A stretch of DNA of 21,283 nucleotides. It comes from Elsinoe ampelina (Eukaryota). A program made the position numbers and the translations under genes. The stretch spans positions 82,266 to 103,548 of the forward strand of contig ML992523.1 of NCBI GenBank assembly GCA_010093995.1, given 5' to 3'. The notes beneath the pieces are model-generated. The model did not search any database, was not told the origin of the DNA, and worked only from the letters and a program-made list of their open reading frames with translations. Of this stretch, positions 544 to 20,749 are shown piece by piece (position 1 is the first letter of the stretch; the number at the start of each line of letters is the position of its first letter).

Positions 544-569
544 TAGTATAACTATTAGAGCAAGGTCGG
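544..569 (+). repeat. hAT left terminal inverted repeat
   Basis: TAGTATAACTATTAGAGCAAGGTCGG versus the reverse complement of the right end, TAGTATAACTATTAGGGCGGAGTTAG. The first 15 bp are identical and the 6 differences are all transitions. Confidence 0.9.
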
Positions 570-579
570 CCCCTTTAGG

Positions 580-810
580 TTTAGTACTATACTAGAGTTT
601 AGGTTAGCCTCTAGCTAGCGTAGTGCCGCTAAGAGCTTAGTAGTACTAGTACTAGCTCCGTACTATAGCTATAATAGCACTATACTAGTACTAGGTATAG
701 GTTAAGTTATATATATTCTAGACGTAGTATAGTACTAGGTTAGGTCGGTAGATAAGTAGTATAGTACTATTAAGTCCTTAGTGTACTTTTACTAGCACTA
801 TACTAGAGTT
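580..810. repeat. hAT left subterminal array of short TAGTAC/TAGCAC/GTGCC-type motifs
   Basis: Dense TAGTACTA, TAGCACTA and TAGTGCCG copies in both orientations just inside the TIR. hAT elements are known to carry subterminal transposase-binding repeats. Confidence 0.6.
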
Positions 811-2027
811 ACTATTCTTATAGTAAATTCTTATAGTAACTACTATGTTCTATAACTCTTATTACTTTTCTGCTCTAAATACTTAAAGTTATAGTAGGTA
901 AAGAATACTAGAGAGAAGCAAAAGTTATTAATTATTAACTCTTATATATAATTATAACCTAATAGTAATTTATAGAAGATTAACCTAATTAATATTATCT
1001 ATATAACTCTTATAAGTCTATTTTATATACTTAGCTAGTAAGCTATATACTACCTAGAACTAATACCTTATTATCTTATTATCTACTTGATCTAGAGAAT
1101 ATTCTATCCTTAGTAAGTTTACCCTTATATAAATTATAACTCTTAACTAGTAAACTAAAGTACTAAAGCTATTAGGTAGAGTCTAAGACTAGAATAATTA
1201 GTTCTAGGTAGTTTAGCCTTTCTACTAACTTATAGTACAGTTGCGGATTGCCTTAATACTATTAGATTACTAGTTAATAGTAAGTATAAGGCTATCTAGG
1301 GCCTTAATCTTTGCCTAAAGGTTGTTAATAAATTTATAGTAAGTAATATTAGCCTAACGAATAATAGAGAGGCAAGTAGTAGATATAGTAGTAGATTTAC
1401 TTAAATTCTAGCAACTATTAGTATAAGTTATACTATAGCGACGTAAAGGTATACTAGATAGTTATTTAAATGTTTCTAAGGAGAGAAAGAAGTAACTTAG
1501 CTAATAATCTACTTATATCTCTTAGTATAATAATAGCTATTGTTTAATAATAGCTATTATTAGTATTGTTGTTTTTTTATAATAGATAATAGCTATTATT
1601 TATATTATTGTTCTTATAATAGGTAATACTAGATATATATACCTTTTAGTTACTATTTCTTCTTCTTTCTCTTAAACCTCTCTTTCTTATTGTTTAATAC
1701 TTTCTTCTATAATATCTTCTTCTTATACTTAACTCTACCTCGACCTAGTAGATCTAATTCTCTTTTAGCCTTATAAGATAACTCCTAGTAACTACGCTAG
1801 GCCCTTATACCTACGCTAGTTTAAAGCCTATATCTACTATATAACTCTTATATATCTTAACTTTAATAATAACTACAAAATCTAAGCTAAATATATCTAT
1901 AATAACTATAGAGGTTCGGTACTTCGCTATAAAGCCTACTATACTTATAATACTCCTTATAACTTTATAGGTGTTTCTAATCTAATCTTTCTTTATAATC
2001 TAATAAATATTAGTATAATATCTTATA

Positions 2028-2228
2028 TGTTAAGAATATAGCTCTCTCTAGATAATTAGGCTATAAAGTTATATAACCTTAAGTTATATAATACTAAGGC
2101 CTAGAGATTTATAGCTATTCTTTCTTCTAGTAGATAGACTCCTTAATTAATTAACTTGTCTATTACCTAATTAGTATATAATTAGTTCTATATAATATTC
2201 CACCCCTAAACGTGCCTTCTACTTAATA
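2028..2228 (+). repeat. copia 5' LTR (201 bp)
   Basis: TGTTAAGAATATAG...CTACTTAATA; direct repeat of 7185-7385 with 12 differences by manual count, all transitions. Confidence 0.97.
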
Positions 2229-2242
2229 GGTTATAAGCCTAG
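2229..2242 (+). promoter_or_regulatory. copia primer-binding site (half-tRNA-iMet type)
   Basis: GGTTATAAGCCTAG lies immediately after the 5' LTR and de-RIPs to GGTTATGRGCCCAG, the internal tRNA-iMet PBS type used by copia-like elements. Confidence 0.8.
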
Positions 2243-2344
2243 AGCTATAGTATAAGTATAGGATTGTATATACTATAGTTAAGTATCTACGTTATTAAAA
2301 TTAGGCCGGATTTTATTAGTATTCTCCTCTATTTCTCCTCTATT

Positions 2345-5300
2345 ATCTTAATCTTAGATAGATTAGTAAAGGTAGTATAAAGCGTAAAAGACTAGTTACT
2401 TAGTACATTAAGTAGAATATATTAAGACGTCTACTATAGATTTATTTCTATAATTGTATAATAGCTGCTATTTATTAGCTATAAACAACTAAACAATATT
2501 TGTTTTATTACTGTTTTCTCTCTTAAGATTAAGCACCTATTAATCTTATTAACAATTATCTAGTTAAGACTAGTATAAAGATCTTAATACCTAGAAGAAT
2601 TAACTTAAAGGTTATTAACCTCCGGATCTCGACCTTTATCTATTTATTTACTAAGTTCTTTTCTACTCTAGAACTTATCTTTAGCTATAGAAGACAATAA
2701 TACCTAATTAAAGTAGCTAGTACCTATACTCTCTAAAGATAACTATAAGAAGTAGTTCTAATAAATAGAGCTCTAGCTTATATTAAAGAAGGTGTTATAG
2801 ACTCTTACTTCCCTTACTAAACTATTAGTAATAACTCTAGAGTTATTATTAACTTCCTTATTTAACTCCTAGTATTTTCCTCTATTAGTAGAGAAGAATA
2901 GTACTACCCTTTACTAGATCTATAGATATATCTCTAAGAGAGATTAAGAGATAATTTAGAAATAGTAGTAGGCTAAGCTAGCTTAGGAGAAGCTAAAGAG
3001 CAAGTATATAAAGTAGATAGGTATATAGGTAAGACAACTTTAGAAAGAATTTATAATATATACTATAAGTAATAATATAACTATCTTAGATACCTAGTTA
3101 TACCTAACTATATTAGGAAGGAGAATTAATAGGTCTTTAGAGATTAAGTAATACTCCTTACTAATAACAAGAATTTAGAGACTACTTAGTACTCTTTTAG
3201 CTTTATAGTTAACTATAAGAGATGCCTTAGATACTTAACTCTACCTTAGTATAGATAAGATCTATAACATTCTTAAAGAAAAGAAAGTATAAAAGGAAGA
3301 AGGGGAATCTACTATATTTATAAGAGGTAGACTATAACAGAGAACTAGTAGAAGCTTAAATTATATATGTATCTTATATAAGGAACCTAGATACTCTATA
3401 TTAAGGTGTCCTTATCTCTAATAAGCTAAGAAGTATATCTAGCTATCCTATAGAGTTACTAAAAGGAGTAGCCCTATAAGAAGATAGTTACCTAAGTGCT
3501 AGAAACTACTTAAACTTATAAGATAGCTTACTAAGAGAATAGACTCCCTTAAAGTAGCTAAATTAAGAAGGAGAGGTAAAGCCTATTTAGCTACTAAGAG
3601 TAGTTTATTATTAACATCTCTATCTCTACTACTAGAAGTTCTACCTAGGAATAAAGAGCTTAAAACTATAGGTTCTACATTAGAGGTTTAAGGTAAGCTT
3701 CTACATTATTAGTAGATACTTAACTCTAGAGTATCTAACTATATAATAGATAAGCTAACTCTCTTTAGGGGCCTATTAAGTAAGATTTACACTTAATAGA
3801 TCTAGGTTAGAGAGAGTTACTTTTAGTTATAGTTAATAGGAACTATAGTTATTAAGACTAAGAAGGGAGATAAGATAAAGGTATAGGCTCTTTATATACC
3901 TAATCTTAGTATTAATTTAGTCTCCTATTATAAGCTATACTTAGATTTAGGCGTTTCTAGAGTTTTTAATTTAAATTCTTTTCTTGTCCTTAATTAGTAG
4001 AAGTAACTATTACTTAAAGCTAGAATTTAAAGGGGGGTATATATTATCTAATTCCTCTTTAAGTAATTAGCTAATTAAAAGCTGTATTTTAGATCTAAGC
4101 CTAGCTTAATTCTAGATCTAGCTAATTAGGATTTAGTATTCCTTACTACCTAGCTTATAATTATATTATAGACTAAGTATACACATCTAACCTAGGATAA
4201 GTAATAAGAGAATCTTATTAACTTAGGACCTAATAACTCTAAGATAGAGTATTAGCTCTAGTATAGGAAATTTACTTACCTTAGAATTAAGAAGCTTAAG
4301 AATCTTTATAAAGTTATAACCCTTAAGAAACCTATTAACCTAAACTATAATCTATCTATTCTATATAAGGTCTGTTCCCTTACTAAGATAAGGAATAGAA
4401 GAGGTAAAACCTTATAGAGAAGACTAGAGGTTCTTTAGCTTATCTATACTAATATCTATAGCCTAATTAAAGTAAGTAGAGAAGGATTTAGATACTTCCT
4501 AGAGCTTATAGATAGCTACTTAAGAATAATATAGATTAGTCTACTTAAGATAAGAGATAAAGCTCTATAAAGGCTTATTAAGTAGAAGCTAAGAGTTAAG
4601 AAGGAAAGTAATACTAAGGTTAAGGTTACTAGATTAGATAATACTAGTAAACTTAATAAGATCCTAAAGTAGTAGAAGCGCTAAGAAGGTATCTATTATA
4701 TAACTACTAAGTTATATAATTTAATTTAGAATAGACTAGTAAAGAAAGGTATCTAAACCTTAGAGAATAGTATAAGAGCAATACTTAAGGACTTAAGGAT
4801 ACTAAATAAGTTCTAGCCTAAAGTAGTTTAGGTAGATATATATCTAAGGAATAGAATAGTAACTAGACCTATAATTAATAATAAGTAAGTTATACCTATT
4901 AAGGCCTATATAGGCATTAAGCTATTAGTTAATTATATTAGGGTCTAGGGCTATAAGGTATATACCTATATAAACCTAAAGTCCCTTCCTATATATAGAA
5001 GAAAAGACAAGCTTATAGATAGAAGAAAAGTAGAAGTATTCCTTAGCTATATAAATAGAACTAACAGGATATACAAGATATAGGCACCTAATAGAAAGGT
5101 AGTAATTATATTACTAAATATTAAATTCTCTAAGTTTAAGAAAGGTAGTAATATTAATCTTAGTATTAGAATTAATACTATAAGTAATTAAGCACTAGTT
5201 AGGAGACTAGTTAGTAGACTAACTTAGATTTAGACTAAGGTTAGATCTAGGATAGACTAACTAAATTAGCCTATTTAGAATAAAGCACCTATAGGGAGAA

Positions 5301-7155
5301 TCTTTTTATATATTAAGATCCTAAGAGTTAACCCTATTAACATTATAGATTTCTAACATAGAAAAGAGCTAATAGTTTAATCTTTACTAACTAACTATAT
5401 AAGTTAATTACTTAAGAGATTAAGAGATAATAACTCTAATAATAAAGGCTCTAAAGCTAAGTACTATAGAGCTTTTATTACTAAGTATATTAATTAGCAA
5501 GATAAGGTTAATAAGATTACTATAATAGCCTCTATTAAGTAATATGTCCTAATCCTAAGGGACTACTATAAGGCTATTACTAATCTAGTATAGGAAAGTA
5601 AATAGTAGAAAGTAATTAATATAGAGCTTAATACTCTATACTTAAATAATACATAGGAAGAGGTTATTCCTCTAAAGGGATCTAACTTAGTAATATCTAA
5701 ATAGGTCTTTAATGTTAAGTATAACATAGATAGCTCTATTAAAAAGTTTAAGGTTAGACTAGTTACTAGAGGCTTCTTATAGAAGTATAGTATTAACTAT
5801 AAAGACATATTTATACTAATAGTTAGAGTAGACATACTTAGACTATTCTTTACTATTATATATATACTTAACCTTAAGTATTATTAGGTAGATGTTAATA
5901 ATACCTTTATAGAATTCTTTCTTTATAAAAAGATCTATATAAGGCTACTACCTAGACTAAAGATTAGTTCTAGATTTGCCTTCCGGATTCTAAGGAGCTT
6001 ATATAGACTTAAGTAAGCTACTAGAGACTAGAACTAGTACTATATCTCTAAGCTCCTAAAGCTAAGCTTTACTTAAAGTAAAGTAGACCTTTATCTTCTT
6101 ATATACTATAATAAGAAGATTATTCTTTTAGTTTATATTAATAATATACTATTTGTAGCATAAAGTAAAAAGAACATCTAGTAGTTTAAGCAAGAACTTA
6201 GTAAGATCTTTAAGATTAAAGATCTTAGCAAGGTTAATAAAGTTCTTAGAGTTAAAGTTATAAGAGATAGATAATAAAGCACCTTAAGACTTAATTAAAC
6301 CTACTATATAGATAATATGCTATAGAGGCTTAATATAACCTCTAATAAGGTTACTTTAACAAAGTAGCTAATAGATAATAAGCTCCCTTAAAGAGCTTAG
6401 GAAAATAATATAAGGTTTAGTAGAACTAAGTACTTATATACTATTAGAAGCTAGATATACCTTAGTACCCTAATAAGGCTAGATACTACCTTTGCCTTAG
6501 GAAGGCTAAGTTAGTTTATAGCGGATCTAATAGATAGTTATACTATTAAGATAAAGAGGATATTAAGATATATTAGATTAACTAAAGATCTTAGTATTAT
6601 ATTTAGAAGGAATAGGAATAAGACTCTTAAGAGATACTCTAATTTAGACTATACCTTAGATAAGTTAGATAGGGTCTCTATCCTTAGATATGTCTTTATA
6701 CTTATAAGTAGTTCTATTAGCTAGATAAGTAGGAAGTAGAAGTCTGTTTTAACCTCTACTATAGAGGCTAAATATATAGTAATATACTCTTATATAAAGA
6801 GATTATAGTTCCTGTCTTAGTTACTAAGAGATATAGGCTATTATAAGATAGTTAGGCAATTACTATAGAGGCTAACTATAAGAGAATCTTAGAAAGTAAT
6901 AATAAGATTACTCTTTACTACTAGGATTAATAGTAATAACTAAGTAGCTCTTTTACTTATAAAAGAGCTATATACTTATAAAAGGGTAAAGTACATTAAT
7001 ATTGCTTACTACTACGTTAGGAGGCTATAGAGAGACTAGAGGATTTAAGTAGAGTTTATAAGAATAGTAGACATAGTAGCTAATAGGTTAACTAAGCTAT
7101 TATAAGGTTAGATCTTTATAAGGTTTATAAAGTAACTTAGCTTATTATTAACCTA
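2345..7155 (+). pseudogene. copia gag-pol polyprotein, single frame, many RIP stops (ends approximate)
   Basis: All motifs lie in one frame: zinc knuckle C-I-L-C-K-E-P-G-H-S-I-L-R-C (3368-3409), protease WILDSGASNHM (3713), integrase LIHTDICGP (4439), RT KFKARLVARGFSQKYGIDY (5744) and VYVDD (6131), RNase H GYSDSDYA (6632), KQKSVSTSTTEAEY, KHIDIAYH, DMVADGLTKP (about 7070). Confidence 0.95.
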
Positions 7156-7184
7156 ATAGCTTATCTATAGGAGCTAAGTAGGAG

Positions 7185-7385
7185 TATTAAGAATATAGCT
7201 CTCTCTAGATAATTAGGCTATAAAGTTATATAACCTTAAGTTATATAATACTAAGGCCTAGGGATTTATAGCTGTTCTTTCTTCTAGTAGATAGACTTCT
7301 TAATTAATTAACTCGTCTATTACCTAATTAGTGTACGATTAGTTCTATATAATATTTCACCTCTAAACGTACCTTCTACTTAACA
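7185..7385 (+). repeat. copia 3' LTR (201 bp)
   Basis: TATTAAGAATATAG...CTACTTAACA, preceded by the purine-rich GGAGCTAAGTAGGAG (degenerate PPT). Confidence 0.97.
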
Positions 7386-8146
7386 TTATAGACTAATAAT
7401 ATCTTTAACCTAATTAATATATAGTGCACTATTAATTGTCTTATTCTTAGTAGAAGAGTAGATCTACTCTTACTCTTTACTATACGCTATAACGTTAAAC
7501 GTAAGTAGAAGGAGTTAGATTATATCGATAATAGTAATAATAGTATTTCTTCTAATAACTAATCTAATTAAAGTAGCATAGTTAAAGCGTTAGCGAGCTA
7601 ATAGCTTTAGATAGTTATTAATAATATAGACTTATACTTTATAAAGACTTAATTACGTTACCTCTTCCTATAAGTAACTAAAATTAACTATAATAATAGT
7701 ATATATAAGCTCTTAAAGTAGAAGTGTTTATATTACCTCTAGCTATACTAGTAGTTATATTACTACCCTAGGTAGTACTATTAATACTAGCGGTAGAAGT
7801 ATCTCCCTCGTTGTTCTCTTTACTATTAGTATTATTCTAGAAAGTAACTTAACTATTATTAGGCTTAAATCTAGTAAGAAAGTTAGAAGTATAATAAGGT
7901 AGATATTAGTAATAGCATAGAAAGTAGCGTTAGTAATAAGTTAGCTAAGGTCGTAGGTACTATAGTAGAGATAGTTATTAAGGTTAATAATAAGAGAAGT
8001 AGCGCGGAGATTAGTTATAGCTTTAGCCTTTATATTATAGTTAATCTATATAATTTTCTTATTAACGTTTTTATAAGTAAATCTAGTATAACTAACGTAG
8101 ATATAAATATAGTTATATTAAAGATACTAGCGAGTAAGGGAATAAG

Positions 8147-8609
8147 TATTACGAACTAGTAGGATAGCTAGAGCGTAGGGATATTAGAACTAATTAAACT
8201 ACTAGAGTTATTACGTAACCTAGCCCGACGTTTATCTAGTTCTTTATCTTCTCTAGTAGCTCTACTTTAGAGACTATAGAGCGCGTAGGTTACTAGTAGA
8301 TATATACTCTATACTACCCCTAGCTTTCGCTACGGAGTATATAGAGTATATAGAGTATATAATAGAGAATATATATATATAAGAATAGTCCTTACCTTAT
8401 ATAAGTACTATAGTTAACCTTGTCTAGATAGCGAACACTAGTATTACTAAGGCTAGCCTTTATAATACTATTTAATTGTACTTTATTATCTATAAGACAT
8501 ATCTTCTCTAACTCTTACCTTAGTACTATACTACTATAGAAGTAGAACTACCTCGTTCTTAGCTTAGCTTAGACTACTAGCGTAGGCTATGTTTAGACAG
8601 TTCGTAACA
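8147..8609 (+). repeat. gypsy 5' LTR (463 bp)
   Basis: TATTACGAACT...AGTTCGTAACA (terminal inverted ends); direct repeat of 14699-15161 with about 41 differences by manual count, all transitions, no indels. Confidence 0.97.
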
Positions 8610-8626
8610 TTTTAACTACCCTTACT

Positions 8627-10708
8627 ATAGTATAGTATACTACGAGGTTAATAAGTAACTCTTACTTTAAGTTACTATTAGTATCTTTAATCGCTAGTAA
8701 GCTAGGAAGACTTACTATTAACGATATATCTACTACTAGTTTAACCTCGGGCAAATATAGAAGGTCTCTTAGTATAGAGGAGAGACGAAGTAAGCCTAAG
8801 CTAGAGGTAGAACTCTTCTATAGGGACTATACCTACTTAAGGCGCTTTCTTGTTTAACTTAAAGCCTTCTTTACTCTAGAGAGAGATAAATACGCTAACG
8901 ATATAGTAAAGGTTCTCTATACTAGAATATACCTTAAAGGCGCTACCTTCGAGTAGTTTAAGCCTTATATAAGTAGCTACCTAGACGGATAACTAAGTCT
9001 AGATATAAAGGCTATCTTTAAGAGTTTTAGTATCTTCTAAGCGAAGATTAGGTAAGTCTTTAATATATCTAATAAGGAACGTATTACTATAATAAAGATT
9101 CGACAACTACGATAACGTAGGTCTATAGCCTAGTACTATTTCTAGTTCTAATAACTCGTAATATACCTAGACTAGAATAATAGTACTAAATATTTAGTAT
9201 TCTACTAAGGACTAAGCGACTTAGTTAAAGACTAAATAATACCTAAGCTGTCTAATAGCCTCTAAGAACTAGTAGATACTATAATTACTATTAATAACTA
9301 ACTTTATAAACAACATATAGAACGTTATAGAGAATATAAGGTAAATACTAGATATATACGTTCCTCCCGGAACTATAGAGACTCTATAGAACTTAACGCT
9401 ATACGCGAAGGTTGCCCCTTATAGGTAAAGGGCTAAAGTTACGAAGGAAAGTTTCTTAGTAGAAAAGAGAGAGAGAAATATAGATAAGATAACTTATATT
9501 TTAAGTATAAAAGACTTAGGTATTAGGCTAGGGACTACTAGTAAAGGGCGCTAGCTAATAGATTATATATAATAGTTGCCGGGCTAGTAGAGAAAAAGGC
9601 TAATACTACTATAGAAGACCTAATAACCTTTAGTATAGGTAAGGAAATATAAAAGAAGTCTACGACGACTTAAGAGGTAATAGAATTCTCTCTAGATGTT
9701 ATACTTAATATCTCTACGACTAATAGTAAACAATAAAGCTAACACGTAATACTATTATAGATAGCATATTATAATAACTCTTATTATATTTACTTATTAG
9801 ACAAGTAGGGATCTAGTTAGTTCCTATATAAGCTACCTAAGCGTAGGTAACTAACGAGATAGCTAGACTAGGAACCTAACCTAGAAGAGCTCTCTATAAT
9901 TAGTAGTAACATTAACTAACCTTAGAAGGTAGTTAGCAATAATTACTAATATACAATTATTAAGACAAAGTATTAGAATATAAGTACTATATAACAATAT
10001 AGTAGCCTTACCTTTAGCTCTTATAGTATACTATAAGGAAAGGTATATTATATATCGCTCTAGAAATGTATAAATCTAGATTATAAATAGTACTACTCTA
10101 TCTACTTATATAATGTACTTAGAGAAGACACTATTAGTCTCGAATATACTATAGACTTCTTAGTAATTAAGATAGGTAGTACTATTCCCTATAGCTAAGT
10201 ACGAGAGTATACTCGATGTAGCCTTACTAACTATAACTATATAGAGAGCAATAGCGATAAAGAGAAATATAACAAGAAATATACCGAATAACTATAGTAT
10301 AATAATATAAATAAGGACTTATCTAACAACGACGATATACTACTACTAGGTAGACGACTTAAAGTATACCTTATAGAGATATAGAGGAATTATATAATAA
10401 TATACACCTACTACTAGAATAGGATATAATAAGATAAATCTATATAACTTACTTTTATCTTTAATACTAACACCTAGCTATGCCTAGAGGGAATAGTTAT
10501 ACTAGTATAGGTATATAACACTACTTAGTATAACTAGTAGAGAATTATTAGACTTTATAGTTATTAAGGAACGTAAGTACTAGAAGTTTACCTTACTATA
10601 TTAAGTAGTAATAAGACACGACTTGCCTAATAGATATAGTACTAATAGTAGATACGTATAGAAAGGGATTAGCTACTTATCTAGGGAGCTACAATAATAA
10701 AAAACTAG
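8627..10708 (+). pseudogene. gag: chromovirus Gag with long C-terminal extension (start approximate)
   Basis: One frame: LFxGD..HLRRFLVQLKAFF (about 8810), YLKGAAFEWF, FYQGLSD.VKD, GDPMELDA (9377), zinc knuckle CFKCGRLGHQARDC (9497-9538), HxxLSWTACYDDSCxxHLSDKQGSGWFP (9743-9826); ends AAA AAC TAG. Confidence 0.9.
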
Positions 10709-10740
10709 TAAGTTATTACCTAATAAGGTAAGATAATAAC
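10699..10740 (+). promoter_or_regulatory. -1 programmed ribosomal frameshift signal
   Basis: Heptamer A AAA AAC (10699-10705) is correctly phased in the gag frame, followed by TAG. After a 6-nt spacer comes a potential stem GTTATTACC...GGTAAGATAATAAC. Pol lies in the -1 frame. Confidence 0.85.
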
Positions 10741-13700
10741 ACTAGCTAAAGCCTTAGTATAATAAAGATTTATATATTAAATTACTTTATACTAGAAGTC
10801 TAGATATAAGAAAATAAGGTAAGAGTAATAATAGATTTAGGAGCTAACTATAGCTATATCTCTATAATAGTTACTAATTAGCTTAAACCTTATTAATATT
10901 AGAAGGAGTTACTTTACCTACTTACTATAGCGGATAGAACCTCTATAGGAAAGGACAGGAAAGTTACTTAGGAACTATAAAACGTTATAATCTAAATCGA
11001 AATATATATAGAAAGACAATTAATCGATATAGTTAACATATAGTATAATATAGTACTTAGTATAGACTAGCTTTAATAATATAATCTAGACGTAGACTAG
11101 ATTAAAGAAATACTTAAATTCCCTAAGTATAATTATAGAATATAGAGAGTATAATTAGCTCCGCGAATACTAACTATAAGAATAGTATAAGTATAACTAA
11201 TAGTTAGAGCTATCGCTAGCGTAAGTAATTAAGTACTTCCGCTAGAATATAAAGACTTCGAGGACTTATTTAAAGAAAGAGAAGGTATCGTAGCCTTACT
11301 CTAATATAAACTATAGAATTACGAAATACCTTTTAAAGAGAGTAAATCCCTAATACACTATTAAGGTCTTATACTACTATTAAAATAAGAGAAGAATATT
11401 CTTAAGAACTATATTAATAAGTACTTACTTAAAGGATTTATACAACTATTAAAATTACCTATTATGTATAGAGTACTTTTTACACTAAAAAAGGATAGAA
11501 CGTTATAAATATATATTAATTACTAGAAACTTAATATACTTACTAGGAAGAATCGCTATCCCCTACTAAGGATTAATAAACTTTAAGACTAACTACTTAG
11601 AGCTAAATAGTTCACTATAATTAACATTAGAGATGCCTATTATTAAGTATAAATAAAGGAGGGCAAGGAGTAGAAAACAGCTTTTAGGACGTAATAGAGT
11701 CTATATAAGTACCTCGTTATACTCTTTAGGTTAACTAATACTCCTATAACCTTCTAAGAGTTAATTAATAATACTCTATAAGAATACCTTAATAACTTTA
11801 TCTTAGTATATTTAGACAATATTATTATCTTCTTAAAGATGTATAATAAACATATAAGACATATTTATAAAGTGCTACGGAAACTAAAAGAAAAAGACCT
11901 ACTAGTAAAGCTCTCTAAGTATAAGTTTTATAAATATAAGATACAATTTCTAGGCTATATTATATCTACTAATAGTATTAGACCTAATCTAAAGAAGATT
12001 AAGTTAGTAAACAACTAGCTAGAACCTATAATAGTTAAGGAGGTTTAAGCGCTACTAGGATTCTTTAACTACTACTACAAATTTGTTAAAGGATTCTCTA
12101 AGGTAGCTATACTAATATCTAACCTTACAAAAAAGGAAACTAGCTTTGTCTTTAACAAGAAGTATAGGTAGGCCTTTAAGGAGCTAAAGCTTAGACTTAT
12201 AATAGTACCTATCCTAGTACTCTTCGACTTAGACTAATAGGTACTACTAGAGATAGATACCTTAGACTTTATAATAGAAGCGTATCTAGCGTAGAAGAAT
12301 ATAGAAGAATAATACTACCTAATTGTATACTACTTACGAAAAATAACTAGACCTAAACTTAACTACAATATATATAATAAAGAGTTACTTGCGATTATAG
12401 AGGCATTCTATAAATAGAGAGTATACCTAGAAGAGATAACCTTACTAGTATAAGTCTACACCGACTATAAGAACCTTCTATATTAGACAATAACTAAGGT
12501 TCTTAATAGATAATAGGTTCGATAGTTAAAAACACTTATAAGCTATAACTTTTAGATCTACTATATTAAGGGATTAGAGAATAGTAGAGTAGACGCTCTT
12601 AGCTAATAACTAGATTACTTAAAGAATATAACAATAATAGAGGCCTCTATACTAAAGTAGTAAGATAGTGCTTTAGTCTATAAGTACCCGAAGGTAGAGT
12701 AGTTATGTAGCCTTACCTAGGAGCTTATATAAGAATAGAAATAAGAAATTATTTAAATATACTATAATAACCTAACGGTAGAACATAGCGGGATTAATAA
12801 GACTATTAAACTTATTACATAAAACTACTTATAGAAAGAACTCCGAAACAATATTAAGACGTATATCGCCGCCTACGATATATGCTGCAAGTCTAAGCAC
12901 TTATAATACAAGCTATATAGCCTATTATAACCTCTACTACCACTAGACAAACTATAGTAATTAGTTATAATAGACTTTATAGGACCTCTACTACTATTAG
13001 AAGAACCTCTTATAGGTGTAAAGTATAATAGTATTCTAGTCCTAGTAGATAGGTTTATAAAGTATTACTACTTCGTACTATATAAGATAATAGTAACTAC
13101 CGAGGATATAGCCTTTACCTTCCTCTAAACAATTGTTTTATAATATAAAGTACTATAAGACCTAATAACTAATAGGGATAAGCTATTTACATTACAATTC
13201 TAGTAATTATTTATAGACTTACTAGGAGTTAAATATAAGCTATTAACCTCCTTTTATCTATAAACGAATAGATAAACTAAATAGGCAAATAAAGTACTAG
13301 AGTAGTACCTATAATACTACCTAAACTATAAGTAAGACTTATAGGTAACACTATTACTACTCGCGGAGCTTGCTATTAATAATAGAAAGTTAGTAAATAG
13401 AATTTTACTATTCTATATAAACTATAGAATATACCTAGATCTATACTATAATACACTCGGAATTAAGCTAATATCTAAGAATATTAACATATTAGTAGCT
13501 AACATTAAGAAACTATATAACTAGCTATACTACGATATAGTATTTATATTATAAAGAATAGTAGAGTTTACTAATTAGAAGAGAATTACGGGACTAATTC
13601 TATAGAAGGGAGAGAAAGTTTACCTCCTTAGTAAAAACATTAAAACGAAATAACTAAGTAAGAAACTTAACTATACTAAACTAGAACCCTTTAAGATTCT

Positions 13701-14099
13701 AGAAAAGAAAAATAAGAACGTATATAAACTAGAACTACCGAGACATATAAGAATCTATCTAGTCTTTTATATATCGCTACTAGAGAAAGTACTATAGAAT
13801 ACTATACCTAGACCTATCGAACTAGATAAAGAAATATAGGAGCTATAGTACAAGATTAAAAGAGTTTTACGCTATAAACTTATAAAAGAAAAACGCTACT
13901 ATCTTATTTACTAGAAAGGACATTAGTATAGTAAAGTAATATAGGAACTAGAGAAGTACCTTACCTTATAAGTAATTCTAGATTACTAGATTAAGAACCT
14001 ATCCTAAGTAAACTAACTAGATAGACCTAGCACTTCTAATACTAAATAAAAACAAGAACGCCTAAGGAGAATTACTTAGCTAATAGAAGCACCTTAATC
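10699..14099 (+). pseudogene. pol: chromovirus Pol (protease, RT, RNase H, integrase, chromodomain) in the -1 frame relative to gag (3' end approximate)
   Basis: One frame: AMIDSGAN (Asp at 10834), IDIRDAYYQ, YLDD (11809), LETDASD (about 12247), NYDIHDKELLAI, VYTDHKNL, SVTMDFI (12961), ITDRDKLF, FHPQTDGQTER, GPF (13684), IHPVFHISLLE, chromodomain YEIERVL...YYLIHWKG...ATWEP (13849-13950). Confidence 0.95.
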
Positions 14100-14624
14100 G
14101 TTACTAAATAGAGAACTCTAGTTAGAGTTAGGCATAAATAATTACTAATTCTATAGTAGGATAGAATCTACTGACAATAATATTTCCTTCTACTCTAGAA
14201 CTTAAATATAAGTCTCCTCTAGAGAGATTACTTTCTCCGCCTTATTCTCTAATTTCTATATCTCTTCGCGTAGGTAAAGCTTATTACCTATAGCTCTTTA
14301 ATAAGCCTCTTTTGCCTTTTTATAAGCCTCTTTAGCTTCCTTTCTAGTAGCCTTAGCTATAACTAATTCCTTTCGTAAATAAATATACTTAGACTAGAGA
14401 CGCTACTATTCCGATTTTGTTACTTAAATATTATAACCTAAGTAGTTACTTATAATATACTAGCTATAGATACCTAACCGAATATAGACCTTATAATCTA
14501 GCCTCTTCGATTTATAATAAGAATAAGCCTATAGTATATTAGTTCTAAATAGTTTAATAAACTCTAAGAGATTCTTTCGTATAGATATACTAGATTTACT
14601 ATGCCTTTAACAACTAGGAGGCAT
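14076..14624 (-). pseudogene. Antisense accessory ORF of the chromovirus (about 180 aa): six-Cys Zn-cluster-like domain plus coiled coil
   Basis: ATG at 14624. Six TAT codons (TGT after de-RIP) are spaced C-x2-C-x6-C-x8-C-x2-C-x7-C (14525-14433), followed by VTKSEWQRL and an E/K/A/R-rich helical region. Confidence 0.75.
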
Positions 14625-14698
14625 ATTTAGTATATAGCGTATATAGATAAGGAGAGATACTTACTTATTAGAACAACTCGATTAAAGAAGAAAAGTAA

Positions 14699-15161
14699 TG
14701 TTATAAACTAGTAAGATAGCTAAAGCATAGAGACGTTAGGACTAATTAAACTACTAGGGTTATTACGTAACCTAGTCTAACGTTTACCTAGTTCTCTATC
14801 TTCTCTAGTAGCTCTACTCTAGAGACTATAGAGTATATAGGTTACTAGTAGACATATACTTTATACTGCCCTTAGCTTTCGCTACGGAGTATATAGAGTA
14901 TATAGAGTACGTAATAGAGGATATATATATATAGAAATAGTCCTTACCTTATATAAGTACTATAGTTAACCTTGTCTAGATAGTAAATACTAGTATTACT
15001 AAGGCTAGCCTTTATAATACTATCTAATTGTACTTTATTATCTATAAGACATACCTTCTCTAACTCTTACCTTAGTGCTATACTACTATAGAAGTAGAAC
15101 TACCTCGTTCTTAGCTTAGCTTAAACTACTAGCGTAAGCTATATTTAGACAGTTTATAACA
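14699..15161 (+). repeat. gypsy 3' LTR (463 bp)
   Basis: TGTTATAAACT...AGTTTATAACA, followed by the TSD ATAAG. Confidence 0.97.
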
Positions 15162-15292
15162 ATAAGCTTCCTTAGGGTAGCTAACAAAGAAAGACTATTA
15201 GTATTAGTAGGTAGAATTATATATAGTAATAAAGAAGGTACGCGTAGAAGTGCTTTAGAGTAAGTATTAGTATAGATACTATAAGAGTGTTA

Positions 15293-17885
15293 TTACTTAG
15301 AGGCTATTAACTAGATATGCTTAGAATACTAGCCTCTAACCTTAGTAATAGTATATAGTAGATCTTTGTCCTTATTATACTCTTCTTTCTCGTTAATCTC
15401 TTTATTACTTAAACTATAGATAGTAATATCTCTAAAGTTGTTACTTATACTATCTATTCCGCTATTAGTATTATTATTAGTAGTAGTAAAACTGTCTATC
15501 TTAGCTAATTAAATGTTTTAAAGATTGTTTTTTACTAGCTTAGAGACTATAATTTATTAAATTATCTACGGAAGTAGTCTATACCTTTAATTGCTAATAA
15601 TATTCTTTACTATATTAAAAACACATTTAATACTTACGCTAGCGATTAGTATTATAAGAACATTATAAGTAATATAAGCTAGTTATAGAAATAAGTATTT
15701 ATTTTCTTTCTACTAAGAAAGAATATTAAATTCTAATATTTCCTATATAGGCGAAGTTCTAAGGTAATTCTTCTCTTCTATCCTTATTATATAGATATTA
15801 CTCTACCCTTACAAAAGTATATTATCTTAGCTAGATACTAGAGGTATAAAGCTACTCTTTATATTTAATAAGGAAGGCTTCTTAAACTAGTAAGTAATAG
15901 ATAAGGCTAGTAGAGGAGGTAGGAGAGTAGTTTAAGAAGAATAGTTATTATTATAGTAATTAAGGTAGTTAAGAAACTATTTATAGTAAAGTAATTTAAA
16001 ATATAGTTCCTACGAAGTATACTTATATATACTAAGTTTCTAAGTTAGATTTAAGATTATACTATAATTAAATAGAAAACCTTAACCTCTACTTGTTTAC
16101 TTATAATACTTAAAAAGCTTAGTATAACTAGCTTTTACTACATTTTATATAACTAATAGCTAGTCTAAGTTATTATTCTCTTTCTAAGTAGACTTAACTA
16201 CGTTAAGGAAGTTAAAAAGAGTATTATACATAAGCTATATATATTATACTAATAGTATATAAGACTAACTTAGCTAGTAAGTTATATTCTTAAAATTCTC
16301 TAGTATTTAGATAATAATCTTTAGATATACCTATTCGGTATAGCCGAGGTAAAGGCGTATTATATCTATATAATTAATAGATACTATATCTTAATTAGCT
16401 AGTACTTTGTTAGTTTAGAGCTTATATATAATTACAATCTCCGTGTTAAGCTATTTATTAATAATTAGTTAAAGTTTAATAGCTCGCTTATATATATTAT
16501 ATATCGAGTTCTAATAGGTATAAATGTCTCTAACGACTAAGAGTTATTTATAAGGAGGTAGATGTACTTAAAGGGATTTAAAGTGTTAGTAGCGTTAAGA
16601 GAATTAGTTAATTATAATACAAATTATATAGAGCTTTAAAATTAGTTAAAAAACTATAAGAAAGAACTATAAGAAATATAACTTACTTTATAAAGGGAAT
16701 TTAGAACTAATAGAGTTATTTAAATATTATAGAGATACTACTTCTCGAGCTTATTAGCTTTCTTATTGTCCTTAGTAGTTTCTAGCTATAGGGCTTAAAT
16801 AATATTTTATATAATAAGATTAATTACATAGGCTAGATATAGAATTATATTCTTAATAGAGGACTAGTATATACTCTTTTTCTTAAGACCTTATTATACT
16901 TTAGATTATAGAGTGTTATTGTTACTTATATTATCTACTATAATAGCGAGAAGATATATATTAATCTTTTTTTTATTTAGAACTCTTAGTAGTTCTATGC
17001 TAAGTATAACTCTAGTATACTATCTACTAATTAGTATAAAATCTAGTAGACACTTACGTACTTACTAGTTATTATTAATATAGTATACCTTTATAGCTAT
17101 AAAACTTAGATAGTTATTCGTAGACTAGCTATCTAGCGTAATTAAAACTTTTATCTAACTACTAAGATTAGTAAGAAGATTAGACTAAATGTCCTTATAG
17201 TGCTCTTTTAATAGCTTTAAGGCCCGTATCTAACCTAGAATATTAGTATATAGCTAGAGGAAATATATAAATTAGAGAAAGAAGAAATTATTAACTATTT
17301 AGAATAACTAATTACAATTAATAAGGACTTTAATAAGCTCTTTTTTAAATTGTTCTAGGGAGAATTATAGTATATAGAATATAGTACTAGTAGTATTTAC
17401 TTTTAATTATATTAGAGCTATCTAAGCTACTAATTATTTATAGCTAGGAGATTTTATATTCTAGTAGCTTTAGCATCTAAGATGTTTTATTAGGTGTTTA
17501 TTACTAATTAAGTTCGTTATTAGGTGTTATAAAGCTCTACTATAGTAGAGACAATATATAAGAGGTATTCTATTAGTAAGCTTAGCACCTTTATTAAAGT
17601 TAGCCTAAATAACTCTATAGCGAGTTATAGAATTCTAGTTTAGTAGGTTTCGTATTTCGCTAACTCTTAATTCGCTACCTATTAATATTATAGACTACTA
17701 TATTTTCTAGGCTTATATAGCTAGCTATTCTTTAAGTAGTATATCTAGTTAGTAGGGCAAATAGCTAATAATTTTAATAGTTTTATAGAATTAAGTAGAG
17801 GATAAATTATTCTAGTAATTAATATAGAACTCTTTAAGCTTATAGAAGAGAGGTAGTAGTAGCGTAATAACTTTTAAAAGTATCT
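15293..17885 (-). pseudogene. hAT transposase, RIP-degenerate, one intron at 16686-16634 (ends approximate)
   Basis: BED finger CLHC...HLIKHL (17553-17480), TLDGWS (Asp at 17133), VDNASNN (16935), CLAHVINL, RDICTRWNSTYDM (about 16530-16495), and dimerisation domain WWKENE..FPQLA.IA.DVLAIPIASVSVExVFN (15715-15610), then an acidic tail. A 53-bp GTAAGT...CTAAT...AAG intron exactly accounts for the frame change. Confidence 0.93.
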
Positions 17886-18099
17886 ATAGTTAAGAATTAA
17901 CTAAGTCTTTATTAAATACTAACATTTTAAGAGTAGAGATATAGAATATTACTAGCTATATAACAAGAAGTAGAAGACTATAAGAATACTCTATAAGAAT
18001 TTATTAGCTACTCTTAATTTGTAGATTAAAAAAATTTTAATAGTATAAAACTAAAAAGCTACTAAAACTATAGTTTAATTTTCCTAACTTAAGATTAAT

Positions 18100-19371
18100 C
18101 TATTTATTCTTATCTATATTATTCTTACTCTTACTTTTCTTATTATTATTATTACTCTTATCTATTGCCTTATTATTATCTTTATCCTAATTCTCTTTAT
18201 TAGAATTATTAAAGTCTCTAGTAGTAACTACCTTATAGTATATTTTAGCTACTTCCTTAGTCTTATACTTATTAGGTTCCTTATTAAGAAGGTTCTTAAT
18301 CTTAGAGTTATTCTTAACTTCTTCTTTAACCTTATTATTACTATACTTAATATAGTAATTATTAGATTTAAGTAAAATATTATTATTCTTATACTTAAAT
18401 TCTAGTTTAGGAGTAGATTTATATTTGCTTTAATAGATTAGTATATAACTATAAGAAATAACTATAAGAAATAATATATATCTAATTATCTACCTATACT
18501 ACTTAGAGTTTAGTAGGTGTTATATTCTTAATAAACTTCTTAAACTTAGCTTAGTTACTATTGTTATAGTTACTAGTATTATATAGTAAATTAACGCTAT
18601 TATAGTAGATCTTATAGGTCTATTTCTTAAGAATTCTACTAGTGCTAAGAAGATATTTTACTTAGTAATTTAGAAATATATTTGTCTTATTATAGAGTGC
18701 CTTCTTTATATAATTAGTAAAGAGTTACTTATAGTAAAGAAGAGTATTAGCTTTATAAATACTACTTTATTTTTAGTAGATAGATATAAACTTATCCTTT
18801 AACTATTCCCCTATATAGAATTAGTAAATATACTATAAGAATATACTATAAGAAATATACTACTCTACTAGGTATAATAGTAAGTCTCCGCTATCTTCTT
18901 ATATACTATATTAAAGGTAGCTTCTTTTTCCTTATCGAATATTACTTAGAATTCCTTAGAGTTTTTAAGTTTTACCTTAAGTATATATTTTATAGAGCAA
19001 TTAGTATTACTAGTAGTAGTAAGAGCTTTCTCCTCTATACTAGCTTATATAGTATAATCTCTTTACTAAATAGCTTACTAGGTATTACTAAGCTATACTT
19101 TCTACTATAGAATTCTAAGAGAGTAGCTATAGTAAAGAGTTCTAGTATTCTAAGAGCGATTTTTAATCTAGTATTTAATCTTATTAGCCTCGGAATTAAA
19201 ACCCTATAATCTAGTTAGTATTTAACTATAAGAAGCATCTATAAGAATTACTTCTATTATAGTAAGAATTACTTTCTCTTCCTTAGTTATTTCTTTAGTC
19301 TTAATTACTAGAGTATTAGTTATCTCTTTCTCTTTACTAAAGGTTTACTAATCTATAGAATTAGTAGACAT
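18100..19371 (-). pseudogene. Spliced accessory gene of unknown function inside the hAT, with acidic (D/E-rich after de-RIP) C-terminus
   Basis: ATG at 19371; a 120-bp first exon; intron 19251-19204 (GTAATT...TACTAAC...TAG); intron 18860-18811 (GTATAT...TACTAAT...TAG); probable intron about 18493-18428; AAT/AAG/GAT-rich tail ending at TAG 18102-18100. The frames of the middle exons were not fully resolved. Confidence 0.6.
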
Positions 19372-19747
19372 TATAGATTAAGAATTAGTAGTAATTTATA
19401 AGAGAAGGTAGAATATTAAGTATAATAGAGAGTAAGATATAAGATATAAGTTTTATAAGGAAAAGATAAGAAGAGAAGAATTTAGTATTCCTTATATATA
19501 TAGTAAATAGAGTAGCTAGAAATATAAGTAATAATAGGTATTAATTCTATTATTATACTAATATAAAGTTATTAATATTATTAATATAAAGTTGTTATAG
19601 TAGAGAATAATAATACAAAATTCATATTCTATATACTATTATAAATTCCTTAATAAGGCTTAATATCTTACTCTTAGTATTTTTGCCTTACTCTTCTTTA
19701 CCTTTATAAATAAATTTTAATAATTAATTTAACAAATTTACGTAGCT
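19372..19747. promoter_or_regulatory. Putative bidirectional promoter between the accessory gene (-) and the H3-like gene (+)
   Basis: A 376-bp gap between divergent start codons, with TATA-like boxes (about 19493 and 19640) and pyrimidine-rich leaders on each coding strand. AT-richness weakens the TATA evidence. Confidence 0.45.
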
Positions 19748-20329
19748 ATAGCTCGTAAGAAGTAAGTAACACCTCTAAAAAGAGTAAAGCTAAGAAAGTA
19801 AGACACTAAGAAAACTACTACTAAAAAGCCTACTATAGGTAGTTATATAATAAAATTTAAACTAGTATTAACTAGACAAATTTGCTAGGTAAAGAGCTAT
19901 AGGTTTAAGCTAGATAGTTAGTTTCTTATAGTAAATTCTTATAGTCTTATATCTAATATAGTATAGCTATTACTCTCTAAGAGATTTATCGCTACTAGAA
20001 GACAACTAAACTTCTTATATATAAGCTTCTTTTCTCCTATATTATTTATAACATTACGTAAGATATTAAGTTAACACTTATAAGTAGAGATTTATACTTT
20101 ATGCTAGATACTATTAAGTGTCTCTAGGAAGTAAGTAAGGTAATACTAGTAGAATATTTCGAAGGTATATTAACTATATATTTAGAATATATAATACCTT
20201 ATACTAATAACTATAGTAGACTATAATCTTAACGCTATCTATACTAAGCGTTATACTATTATATAGAAAGACTCTTAGCTTACTAGGAAATATTATAATA
20301 AGTACTACCTACTTACTTTCTCTAATTAG
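19748..20329 (+). pseudogene. Histone H3-like gene captured in the hAT (3 exons: 19748-19916, 19967-20164, 20220-20329)
   Basis: De-RIP translation: MARKKQ...KPRKQ...[75 protein letters not shown]|DCNLNAIHAKRxTIMQKDSQLARK, collinear with the histone H3 fold. Both introns have GT, a CTAAT branch site and TAG, and both restore the frame. Confidence 0.93.
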
Positions 20330-20439
20330 TAAGATCTCTTCTCTATAATACTATAAGAATAGACTATAAGAAATAGGTAAGTGTATTTTTACATAGACTA
20401 GACTATTAAATTTTCTTTCTATAGACTTATTATAATGCT

Positions 20440-20740
20440 AAAGTATAGTATAGTAACTATAGTTACCTTAAAGCCTAACTAAGGTATAGTACTATAACGT
20501 AGTATAATACTAGGATTTAACTCTAGTACTAATTTAGTATAGTACTATTATAGTATAGTATAGCGCTATTATAGTATAGTACTATTCTTGCTTATCTATA
20601 GTATAGTACTAGTGCTAGTATAGCTTAGCGTAGTACTAGTACTAGTACTAATATAGTAGAGTATAGAGCTAGTACTATTTAGTTTAGCACTAGGTACCGA
20701 CTTACTAAGAACAGCTCTATACTAGTACTAGAGTTAGCCT
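20440..20740. repeat. hAT right subterminal array of short TAGTAC/TAGTAT/TAGCAC motifs
   Basis: Many copies, e.g. TAGTATAGTACTA, TAGTGCTAG and TAGCACTAGGTACCG, mirroring the left array. Confidence 0.65.
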
Positions 20741-20749
20741 TTAGCTACT

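Follow-up and report, generated by a model that had tools for sequence, protein, structure and literature searches.

A shared core motif in nearly all short introns of a RIP-saturated hAT transposon hints at a splicing signal of the element's own

How does one exact, two-part word come to recur in three unrelated genes of a single transposon, and at which level would it act? The question is raised by a 21,283-nucleotide stretch of DNA (the window, 21.3 kb), in which the dyad TTCTTATAG-N4-TTCTTATAG has eight exact matches, all in the three pieces of a hAT element. A first-pass annotation of the same DNA had described the dyad and offered two mechanisms for it, a protein-binding site in DNA and a splicing switch in RNA.

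The host element spans positions 556-20763, is RIP-saturated and is split by two nested LTR retroelements. It is a member of the hAT superfamily, as first annotated, with the target site duplication (TSD), the terminal inverted repeats (TIRs) and the dimerisation domain all present. The 8-bp TSD reads ATAACTAT on the left (548-555) and ATAGTTAT on the right (20764-20771), with two differences that are both RIP-type transitions, and the first 14 nt of the TIRs differ by transitions only. The Pfam domain Dimer_Tnp_hAT (PF05699) scores 25.2 bits against a cutoff of 21.4 (E 1.4e-5, stops read as X), and phmmer returns 50 matches, with fungal hAT transposases down to 1e-36. The element and its genes are laid out as follows.

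556..569, plus strand: left TIR, adjoining the TSD at 548-555
1957..7716, no strand: nested LTR retroelement 1, dyad-free and outside the feature
8081..15161, no strand: nested LTR retroelement 2, dyad-free and outside the feature
15401..17925, minus strand: hAT transposase gene, ATG at 17925, dimerisation domain at about 15545-15772, many RIP stops
18100..19371, minus strand: accessory ORF, ATG at 19371, stop-free stretch of 80 aa at 18187-18429
19745..20300, plus strand: histone H3-like gene, RIP-damaged, two introns, 5-aa insertion relative to H3
20750..20763, minus strand: right TIR, adjoining the TSD at 20764-20771

The accessory ORF has no homologue by word-indexed search and no atlas neighbour, and its Pfam search gave only a sub-threshold match to DUF7891 (E 0.063). 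Within the window, tblastx detects no further H3-like copy, and no Rfam family reaches its gathering score. Composition dominates the self-BLAST under lenient scoring, so that its usable result is the LTR pairs.

The eight dyads are distributed over the ends, the introns and one leader of the element.

815..836, plus strand: copy 1, subterminal at 259 bp from the left end, with neither CTAAY nor AG at the usual spacing
16654..16675, minus strand: copy 2, within the transposase intron
17978..17999, minus strand: copy 3, in the transposase 5' leader, with AG 22 nt after the dyad and the ATG 30 nt beyond
18449..18470, minus strand: copy 4, within putative intron 3 of the accessory ORF
18833..18854, minus strand: copy 5, within putative intron 2 of the accessory ORF
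19226..19247, minus strand: copy 6, within putative intron 1 of the accessory ORF
19923..19944, plus strand: copy 7, in H3-like intron 1, the sole internal plus-strand copy, in the sole plus-strand gene
20351..20372, minus strand: copy 8, subterminal at 391 bp from the right end

All eight annotated coordinates were reproduced exactly, and the invariant half-sites, the 13-bp period and the 4-nt spacer of varying letters (TAAA, TTCT, AGTA, TTAT, TATA, ATGC, TAAA and TCTA) are seen in 8/8. The annotated placement also stands, with one copy upstream of the transposase (30-50 nt before the ATG) and two subterminal copies, 1 and 8, that are mutually inverted and similar for a few bases past the dyad. 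Copy 8 lies about 50-70 nt past the H3-like coding end, is antisense to that gene and is followed by CTAAT after 21 nt. The TIR sequence is unrelated to the dyad.

Dinucleotide-preserving shuffles of the window, a comparison already named in the annotation, contain a dyad in 0 of 100 cases. The half-site occurs 22 times, against 2.69 ± 1.72 in the shuffles; 16 of these occurrences form the dyads, and the six singles (2743, 3474, 5774, 11174, 11776 and 12465) all lie within the nested LTR elements. As Markov models of order 1-3 predict 3.0-5.2 half-sites, the singles are at chance level. A scan allowing up to three mismatches adds two three-mismatch matches (0.98 expected) to the eight exact dyads, and none with one or two mismatches is present in the window; exact copies beside chance-level matches mean that decayed dyads are absent. 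The dyads are confined to the hAT pieces 556-1956, 7717-8080 and 15162-20763, about 7.4 of 21.3 kb or ~35% of the window, a placement with a probability by area share of (0.346)^8, ~2e-4. The ~13 kb of equally RIPed nested retroelements hold no dyad. The restriction to the hAT, with single half-sites only in the retroelements, was thus correctly annotated. The dyad word in its present form contains neither CpA nor TpG and therefore cannot be altered by RIP, so that its invariance since inactivation is expected; the signal is its recurrence, not its invariance. Among the 40 variable places listed, of 265 across other copies of the family, none falls in a dyad, the nearest being 17968 and 18001.

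The dyad keeps a set distance to splice signals. The branch-point word CTAAY starts 7-8 nt after the dyad in five of the eight copies, for which the window frequency of CTAAY (0.0070 per position) gives P(≥5 of 8) = 2.8e-8, and an AG ends 20-22 nt after it in six of eight. Copies at 815, 17978 and 20351 are without the CTAAY geometry. Orientation follows gene direction, in agreement with the annotation: the six dyads with a known gene strand are all in sense (6/6). In 5/8 copies the dyad sits between donor and branch point in sense orientation, with homology supporting two of these introns. The dyad-bearing introns, putative ones included, are 53-78 nt long, and the distance from donor to dyad ranges from 9 to ~34 nt.

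16634..16686, minus strand: transposase intron (53 nt), in which 5 nt separate GTAAGT from the dyad and 8 nt the dyad from CTAAT, with a last 7 nt ending AAG
17956..18011, minus strand: putative 5'-UTR intron or lone acceptor module, read from signals only, weak donor GTAGCT, no CTAAY
18428..18493, minus strand: putative accessory-ORF intron 3, 66 nt, GTAGAT, dyad, CTAAT, AAG, signals only
18811..18863, minus strand: putative accessory-ORF intron 2, 53 nt, GTAGTA, dyad, CTAAT, TAG, signals only
19204..19272, minus strand: putative accessory-ORF intron 1, 69 nt, GTAATT, dyad, CTAAC, TAG, signals plus in-frame ORF continuation
19889..19966, plus strand: H3-like intron 1, 3' end fixed, 5' end uncertain with donor candidates at 19843, 19889 and 19903
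20165..20216, plus strand: H3-like intron 2, GTATAT, CTAAT, TATAG, no dyad; H3 homology changes frame here

The annotation had placed five dyads in introns of three genes, and the evidence differs between them. For the transposase intron both sides are confirmed, its exons bordering 16634-16686 exactly: in tblastn, residues 91-402 of a homologue (P0004) match 17634-16684 and residues 417-623 match 16636-16025, with a shift of reading frame across the intron. The homologue carries 16 additional residues at the junction, which read like a retained intron and show, judged by eye, no trace of a dyad. Since the intron position is common to this distant homologue, the intron is not newly gained. For H3-like intron 1, homology supports the 3' side, as similarity to H3 begins at ~19966-19969, right behind TATAG; the N-terminal tail exon has no PDB match by phmmer, which makes the 5' side a by-eye reading. 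The three accessory-ORF introns are read from splice signals and frames, and the frames do not close cleanly.

Sequence around the dyad is conserved to a lesser degree than the dyad. The surroundings of the branch point outside the dyad have an identity of 0.43, against 0.32 ± 0.05 in 126 control CTAAY..AG contexts (P = 0.03), and two introns have a similar 5' part before the dyad (GTAAGTTATAT and GTAGTATAT). Folding of six dyad-bearing modules, in their RIPed state, gives z-scores of -0.84 to +0.98 and no stable fold. Flanks that are slightly above controls, together with a varying spacer and donor distance, suggest constraint on the dyad words rather than on the whole intron.

Taken with the sense orientation, the set distances to CTAAY and to the AG favour the RNA-level mechanism of the annotation. 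With moderate confidence, the dyad is interpreted as a pyrimidine-tract-like, acceptor-like RNA element common to the introns of this hAT, its function being inferred. The dyad would be the conserved core of an intron module belonging to this hAT family, in which two pyrimidine-rich, acceptor-like 9-nt words lie 13 nt apart between donor and branch point, 7-8 nt before CTAAY and 20-22 nt before the 3' AG. Introns with this module would occur in all three genes, including the H3-like one that was captured. The site of action would be the pre-mRNA. There the dyad, presumably read as RNA and bound by protein, could recruit one splicing factor in a sequence-specific way, at the place where fungal polypyrimidine tracts normally sit. 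Removal of most introns of the element would then depend on that factor. As the copy in the window is dead through RIP saturation, the proposal concerns the ancestral active element.

Several observations run against the RNA reading. Three of the five 'intron' dyads lie in an ORF that has no homologue. H3-like intron 2 is dyad-free, and so is the putative retained intron of P0004. Of the three copies without the CTAAY geometry, two are subterminal and mutually inverted, as a DNA-binding site would be. Exact 9-mers at a strict 13-nt spacing are also seen more typically with dimers that bind DNA than with splicing factors known to bind RNA.

A DNA-level site is a rival reading that is considered unlikely. 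The dyad would be a direct repeat for a dimeric protein encoded by the element, either the BED finger of the transposase or the accessory-ORF product; that such a site would serve transposition, autoregulation of the element's promoters or chromatin marking from non-coding space is likewise improbable. The exclusive occurrence of the dyad in about a third of the window, the exact 9-mers at a fixed period with a free spacer, the inverted copy inside each subterminal region with similarity slightly past the dyad, and the copy just before the transposase ATG speak for such a site. A DNA-binding site would not explain why the branch-point word (P ~3e-8) and the AG follow at set distances, nor the 6/6 agreement with the gene strand, and the TIRs hold no related sequence. 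Sites of hAT transposases are expected in subterminal regions, as with the short repeats near the ends of Ac. The dyad does not cluster near both ends, with 2/8 copies subterminal, and these regions are filled with a different, palindromic word.

582..769, no strand: left subterminal array of palindromic TAGTACTA, 6 sites
20487..20730, no strand: right subterminal array of TAGTACTA, 10 sites

Of the 27 window sites of TAGTACTA, 16 fall within 300 bp of one end or the other, a 48-fold enrichment and the usual pattern of hAT subterminal repeats. By its sequence distribution, TAGTACTA appears to be a better candidate for the transposase-binding site than the dyad, which also speaks against the DNA mechanism of the annotation.

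Passive shared ancestry is another doubtful, though not negligible, explanation, in which the introns were copied within the element or from a host family of introner-like elements and the dyad is a functionless remnant. Some copying mechanism is required, since an 18-base word cannot originate eight times independently, and both the similar 5' parts of two introns and the slight likeness of the 3' halves fit such copying. Neutral decay should not leave 16/16 half-sites perfect beside near-background flanks, and the old position of the transposase intron also argues against this reading. Introner-like elements are described in the available text of PMC4457414 as spread in Dothideomycete genes, at times several per gene; those in the available text of PMC3609843 differ from the hAT introns, which are short (53-78 nt) and show no stable fold. 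Shared ancestry and function are compatible, and we think that copying plus constraint is the likeliest history. A different transcript-level signal, such as intron-mediated enhancement or a termination or decay signal, would also account for the sense orientation (6/6) and the intronic location, yet it does not predict a fixed branch-point distance and is regarded as quite improbable. Dinucleotide counts lead to the estimate that some three quarters of the TpA in DNA so saturated with RIP arose from CpA or TpG. Were the first TpA of the half-site a former TpG, its ancestral form would contain the yeast Nab3 and Nrd1 words. Chance, as a composition artefact of TA-rich, RIP-saturated DNA, has a negligible probability: RIP inflates TA-rich words, the single half-sites in the retroelements are at chance level, and one unrelated RIPed metagenome contig family has one dyad, but the shuffle, retroelement, mismatch and CTAAY-coupling counts refute it.

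The reading as an RNA element can be set beside known systems. Fungal polypyrimidine tracts, from 2004 work cited in PMC5677156, are like the dyad in intron position, pyrimidine-rich core (TTCTT in the dyad) and sense orientation; in the available text of that source, 83% of tracts in Fusarium lie between donor and branch site, likewise in five other fungi, and a tract is quoted as a run of 6 or more bases that lacks A and includes 3 or more T. The pyrimidine core TTCTT of the dyad measures 5 nt and becomes 6 nt long if a T or C precedes it, as in 6/8 first and 3/8 second half-sites. Ordinary tracts, as far as that text describes them, vary in sequence, length and number, whereas the dyad consists of two exact 9-mers at fixed spacings in three unrelated genes, and each half has an acceptor-like TAG at its end.

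In Dothideomycetes, introner-like elements (PMC4457414, PMC3609843, both in their available text) are likewise a case of unrelated genes that carry related introns, with several in one gene, and the fungal class is probably common to both, that of the hAT being inferred from literature on H3-carrying hATs. Introner-like elements are longer than regular introns and stably folded in the available text of PMC3609843, whereas the hAT introns are short, have no stable fold and share the 22-nt core only. Their copies, in this window, lie in one transposon, and the position of at least one of these introns is old. Against the ~80% or higher whole-intron identity of introners, the hAT introns reach 0.43 around the branch point outside the dyad (0.32 in controls), with 5' lengths of 9 to ~34 nt. 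Flanks barely above controls and the missing fold indicate that they are not typical introner-like elements.

The subterminal repeats of hATs resemble the dyad as an element-restricted short word with an inverted copy inside each subterminal region; unlike such repeats, 6/8 dyads are located internally, in association with splice signals. The P element retains its third intron somatically through pseudo-splice-site decoys. By analogy the logic may be similar, with decoy splice-like words near a transposon intron that are bound by the deciding factor. In the P element the control concerns a single intron, relies on pseudo-donors in an exon and operates in an animal host; that of the hAT would involve an intronic pseudo-acceptor pair in most introns of a three-gene fungal element known from sequence. 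Comparable elements are the RIPed, H3-carrying hATs of Mycosphaerellaceae (Dhillon et al. 2019, PMC6710886), which in the available text are likewise large, RIP-saturated and high-copy, with an 8-bp TSD and an H3-like gene; their H3 copy is described there as intron-less, whereas the H3-like gene of the window is interrupted twice. The six consensus sequences published there, in a text where words split at line ends can be missed, contain one half-site and 0/6 window 12-mers.

Multi-gene, intron-bearing transposons depend on host splicing for every gene, and one exact word common to all its introns, set at a constant distance from the branch point, would compactly tie such an element to one factor. 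A more far-reaching version, a private splicing code in which one factor, possibly the accessory-ORF product, switches all introns of the three-gene hAT together, is speculative and rather unlikely. If true, the transposase, the accessory protein and the histone variant would be turned on and off jointly, and the switch might confine activity to one life-cycle stage or help transcripts evade defences that sense poorly spliced transposon RNA. The acceptor-like word would lie in the stretch just upstream of the branch point, which the U2 snRNP must occupy. The half-site may also resemble the part of U2 snRNA that adjoins its branch-point-binding region. A shared intronic word that ties the element to one factor would be a fungal counterpart of the splicing control of the P element. 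The presence of the motif in nearly all short introns suggests a splicing signal of the element's own. It also bears on intron origin and spread in Dothideomycetes, as introns with a common core occur in genes that are unrelated to each other, including a histone gene captured from the host, and at least one of the three genes has its intron at an old position. In practical terms, the dyad followed after 7-8 nt by CTAAY and then by AG provides a search key for annotating the family.

Searches beyond the window place the exact dyad in at least 115 metagenome stretches, nearly all single matches in unrelated DNA. Among the matches listed, similarity to the window does not extend past the immediate surroundings of the dyad at any locus (longest 66 nt, 79%), and no locus matches the 50 transposase homologues. 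Two of the matches were set aside: a RIPed fungal repeat (L009/L092), which has one dyad but lacks a hAT domain, is treated as chance, and a satellite (L087), whose half-site-based unit measures ~24 nt, is treated as unrelated. An antisense ORF through the dyad at 18833 found no matches in the protein collection. Among the papers listed as containing the 9-mer string, none deals with fungal transposons; several are lists of primers or reports on human splice sites. Two possible RNA runs with the same species label yielded 2 and 1 stray contigs, each of which continues into sequence unlike the window, and hence essentially no cover of the element. The family is present in high copy number, with 2340 and 3254 matching short contigs in two DNA runs.

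The dyad, TTCTTATAG-N4-TTCTTATAG, matches the window exactly eight times, at 815-836 (+), 16654-16675 (-), 17978-17999 (-), 18449-18470 (-), 18833-18854 (-), 19226-19247 (-), 19923-19944 (+) and 20351-20372 (-), and none of 100 dinucleotide-preserving shuffles contains a match. The 9-mer half-site TTCTTATAG occurs 22 times, compared with 2.69 +/- 1.72 in the shuffles; 16 occurrences belong to dyads and the remaining six are singles, all inside the nested retroelements and near the Markov expectation of 3.0-5.2 (orders 1-3). A search allowing up to three mismatches added just two 3-mismatch matches (0.98 expected), so the copies are all-or-none. When the eight copies are aligned with 60-nt flanks, the invariant positions are the two 9-mers and a T after the second, and the spacer is variable. 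The first-pass annotation had described these eight places and strands, the lone half-sites in the retroelements, and constant half-sites around a changing spacer, all of which were recovered. The present half-site contains neither CpA nor TpG and hence can no longer be altered by RIP. That it has stayed invariant since inactivation is thus no surprise; what calls for an explanation is the eight-fold recurrence of an 18-base word. Chance is excluded as the source of the dyads; the pattern is real and far from random.

The host of the dyads is a hAT transposon split by two nested LTR retroelements.

Features of the window
556-20763: hAT host element, in three pieces, about 7.4 kb
582-769: left array of the octamer TAGTACTA, 6 sites
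1957-2587 with 7108-7716: LTR pair of nested retroelement 1
8081-8609 with 14625-15161: LTR pair of nested retroelement 2
16634-16686, minus strand: transposase intron; GTAAGT, 5 nt, dyad, 8 nt, CTAAT, 7 nt ending AAG
20165-20216, plus strand: H3-like intron 2, 52 nt, GTATAT ... CTAAT ... TATAG, without a dyad, at the H3 frame switch
20487-20730: right array of TAGTACTA, 10 sites

The assignment to hAT is based on a Pfam hAT dimerisation domain on the minus strand, with stops read as X (25.2 bits, cutoff 21.4), and on a 400-residue minus-strand stretch that matched 50 proteins (best 1e-36), read as fungal hAT transposases. The whole window is RIP-saturated (TpA/ApT 1.86; (CpA+TpG)/(ApC+GpT) 0.14; GC 22-32%). 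The first 14 nt of the element ends (556-569 and 20750-20763) are inverted repeats that differ by transitions only, and the flanks at 548-555 and 20764-20771, ATAACTAT and ATAGTTAT, are an 8-bp duplication with two RIP-type transitions; RIP thus struck both ends, even the duplicated target, differently. In two DNA runs, 2340 and 3254 short contigs align to the window stretch at 80% identity or more, making the host a high-copy family. The contigs in both runs differ from the window mostly by A>G and T>C, so at those sites RIP has gone further in the window copy than in the others. Two possible RNA runs gave essentially no coverage of the stretch. Summed contig depth over 15023-15214, in the right LTR of nested element 2, is about 15 times that of the hAT, with loose ends at 15161; this LTR family is therefore far commoner than the hAT, and 15161 is an insertion boundary. 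Contigs in both runs also bridge 17469-19080 and 19023-20208 with 17 and 22 filler letters, which indicates internally deleted hAT-family derivatives lacking the accessory ORF or the H3-like region.

All eight dyads lie within the hAT pieces and none in ~13 kb of equally RIPed retroelement sequence, a placement with a probability of (0.346)^8, or about 2e-4, by our own arithmetic; the reported confinement to the hAT therefore holds. Subterminal regions are the usual location of hAT transposase sites, as in Ac and its relatives. Here they are filled by the palindromic octamer TAGTACTA, with 16 of its 27 window sites in the two terminal 300-bp regions (48-fold enrichment), and this word probably descends, through RIP, from the subterminal repeat that the transposase of this hAT bound. 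The dyad was rejected as the obvious subterminal repeat, its two subterminal copies lying farther in, 259 and 391 bp from the ends.

Three genes of the element carry dyads. In the minus-strand transposase, tblastn places residues 91-402 of P0004, a database hAT transposase homologue, on 17634-16684 and residues 417-623 on 16636-16025; an ATG at 17925 shares the frame of the upstream match. The two exons are in different frames, separated by a gap of exactly 53 nt that holds one dyad. P0004 has 16 extra residues (about 403-418) exactly at this junction, and their possible codons include branch-point-like and acceptor-like words. Their sequence suggests that the gene model retains an intron here, in which case the position of this intron would be old. 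No dyad was seen in this putative intron, judged by eye from the residues only. The H3-like gene matches histone H3 residues ~46-107 in one frame (E 4e-5 against PDB chains; Pfam Histone E 0.026, below cutoff) and ~104-131 in another (E about 0.1). Its H3 homology starts straight after the TATAG at 19966, that is, after the module of the dyad at 19923. A lysine-rich stretch 130-220 nt upstream, for which phmmer returned no match, may be the histone tail and hence the 5' exon of that intron. Relative to H3, the gene (19745-20300) shows two interruptions and a 5-residue insertion. The minus-strand accessory ORF has an ATG at 19371, an 80-residue stop-free stretch at 18187-18429, and three dyads in stretches that also hold donor-like GTs, CTAAY and AG. 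A word-indexed protein search and the atlas neighbours gave no homologue, and the proposed boundaries do not close all frames, so its three introns are putative and are named from splice signals.

The first-pass annotation is thus largely right on anatomy. Its count of five dyads in introns of three genes stands by homology for the transposase and on the 3' side for H3-like intron 1, and is suggested by signals for the three in the accessory ORF. Two of the five dyad introns (16634-16686 and 18428-18493) end in AAG rather than YAG. AAG acceptors are uncommon in fungi, and RIP cannot create them out of CAG; a weak acceptor beside a strong acceptor-like dyad may be meaningful.

The position of the dyads relative to splice signals is tightly constrained. 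The branch-point word CTAAY starts 7 or 8 nt past the dyad in five of eight copies (P = 2.8e-8 for at least five, with a window-wide background of 0.0070 per position). An AG ends 20-22 nt past the dyad in six of eight; one of these is the copy at 17978 in the transposase leader, whose AG precedes the ATG by 30 nt. Wherever the gene strand is known, in six copies, the dyad has sense orientation, and the sole internal plus-strand dyad is within the sole plus-strand gene, so orientation does follow gene direction. Between donor and dyad the spacing is loose, at 9 to about 34 nt, so the dyad keeps its place relative to the branch point and acceptor rather than the donor, as part of a larger module with both.

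This location is exactly that of the fungal polypyrimidine tract, which mostly precedes the branch site, on its donor side (83% of tracts in Fusarium; such a position is also reported for five other fungi). By the available text of PMC5677156, 91% of introns have CTRAY as their branch site and about 94% end in YAG; RAG acceptors make up about 6% in Fusarium. Each half of the dyad resembles a brief pyrimidine stretch closed by an acceptor-like TAG. As a text string, the 9-mer is also present in human splice-site reports, going by their titles, consistent with its acceptor-like look and nothing more. The favoured, though unproven, reading, drawn from sequence patterns, is that the dyad acted at the RNA level; on the pre-mRNA it would have formed a sequence-specific platform for one splicing factor, common to most introns of the element. 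U2 snRNP proteins contact the 20-25 nt that precede a branch point, and a factor on the dyad could either aid or block U2 binding. Such exact words, so regularly spaced, point to a dedicated reader more than to a generic tract. Eight independent origins of an 18-base word can be dismissed, so copying must have occurred, possibly through intron duplication or conversion between introns, after which the words would be kept as the rest of the intron drifted. The copy at 17978 has a poor donor and that at 20351 faces inward from the right end; speculatively, each could serve as the acceptor when a leader farther upstream is spliced in over a long range, resembling the alternative splicing of multi-gene plant transposons. 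The dyad bears on known kinds of phenomena, namely intronic splicing elements, intron families and transposon self-regulation.

Of the two mechanisms originally offered, the RNA-level one is strengthened by the coupling to splice signals and strand, and a DNA-binding site is less favoured. The latter would fit the exclusivity of the dyad to the element, the strict half-site spacing, the one inverted copy near each end and the copy upstream of the transposase ATG, but it leaves that coupling unexplained and is considered unlikely. Passive shared ancestry of the introns, with no function for the dyad, is likewise unlikely; the 14 nt around the branch point outside the dyad are only slightly more alike than in controls (identity 0.43 versus 0.32 +/- 0.05, P = 0.03, 5000 resamples of 126 control CTAAY..AG contexts from the window), and ancestry fails to account for 16 half-sites, all perfect, next to flanks that are almost random. 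Introner-like elements, as the available texts describe them (PMC4457414, PMC3609843), are near-identical to one another, exceed regular introns in length and fold stably. A typical element of this kind was rejected given the weak flank likeness, modules of only 53-78 nt, and folds no better than shuffles (z -0.84 to +0.98 in six dyad-bearing stretches).

An H3-capturing, RIP-inactivated hAT family is known from Pseudocercospora fijiensis and five relatives; its H3 copy is described as an intron-less retrocopy, and the available text reports no internal repeats (PMC6710886). In contrast, the H3-like gene of the window is twice interrupted, reflecting either a different capture or later intron gain. 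In the accessible text of the six published consensus sequences, where a word broken across two lines would escape notice, the half-site occurs once and six 12-mers from the window do not occur; the window family is thus of the same kind, yet none of the published consensus families. A metagenome scan for the dyad gave chance-level occurrence among the matches listed. Two metagenome contigs, L009 (2491-2512) and L092, represent one RIPed fungal repeat with a single common dyad followed by an AG-ending tail of ~25 nt; this repeat showed no hAT domain and a weak gag match only. Another, L087 (746 nt), is a satellite whose ~24-nt unit is built from the same 9-mer, with graded variants including TTCTCGCAG, TTCTTGTAG and TTCTCACAG that resemble steps of CpG/CpA decay leading to TTCTTATAG; a link with the hAT is improbable.
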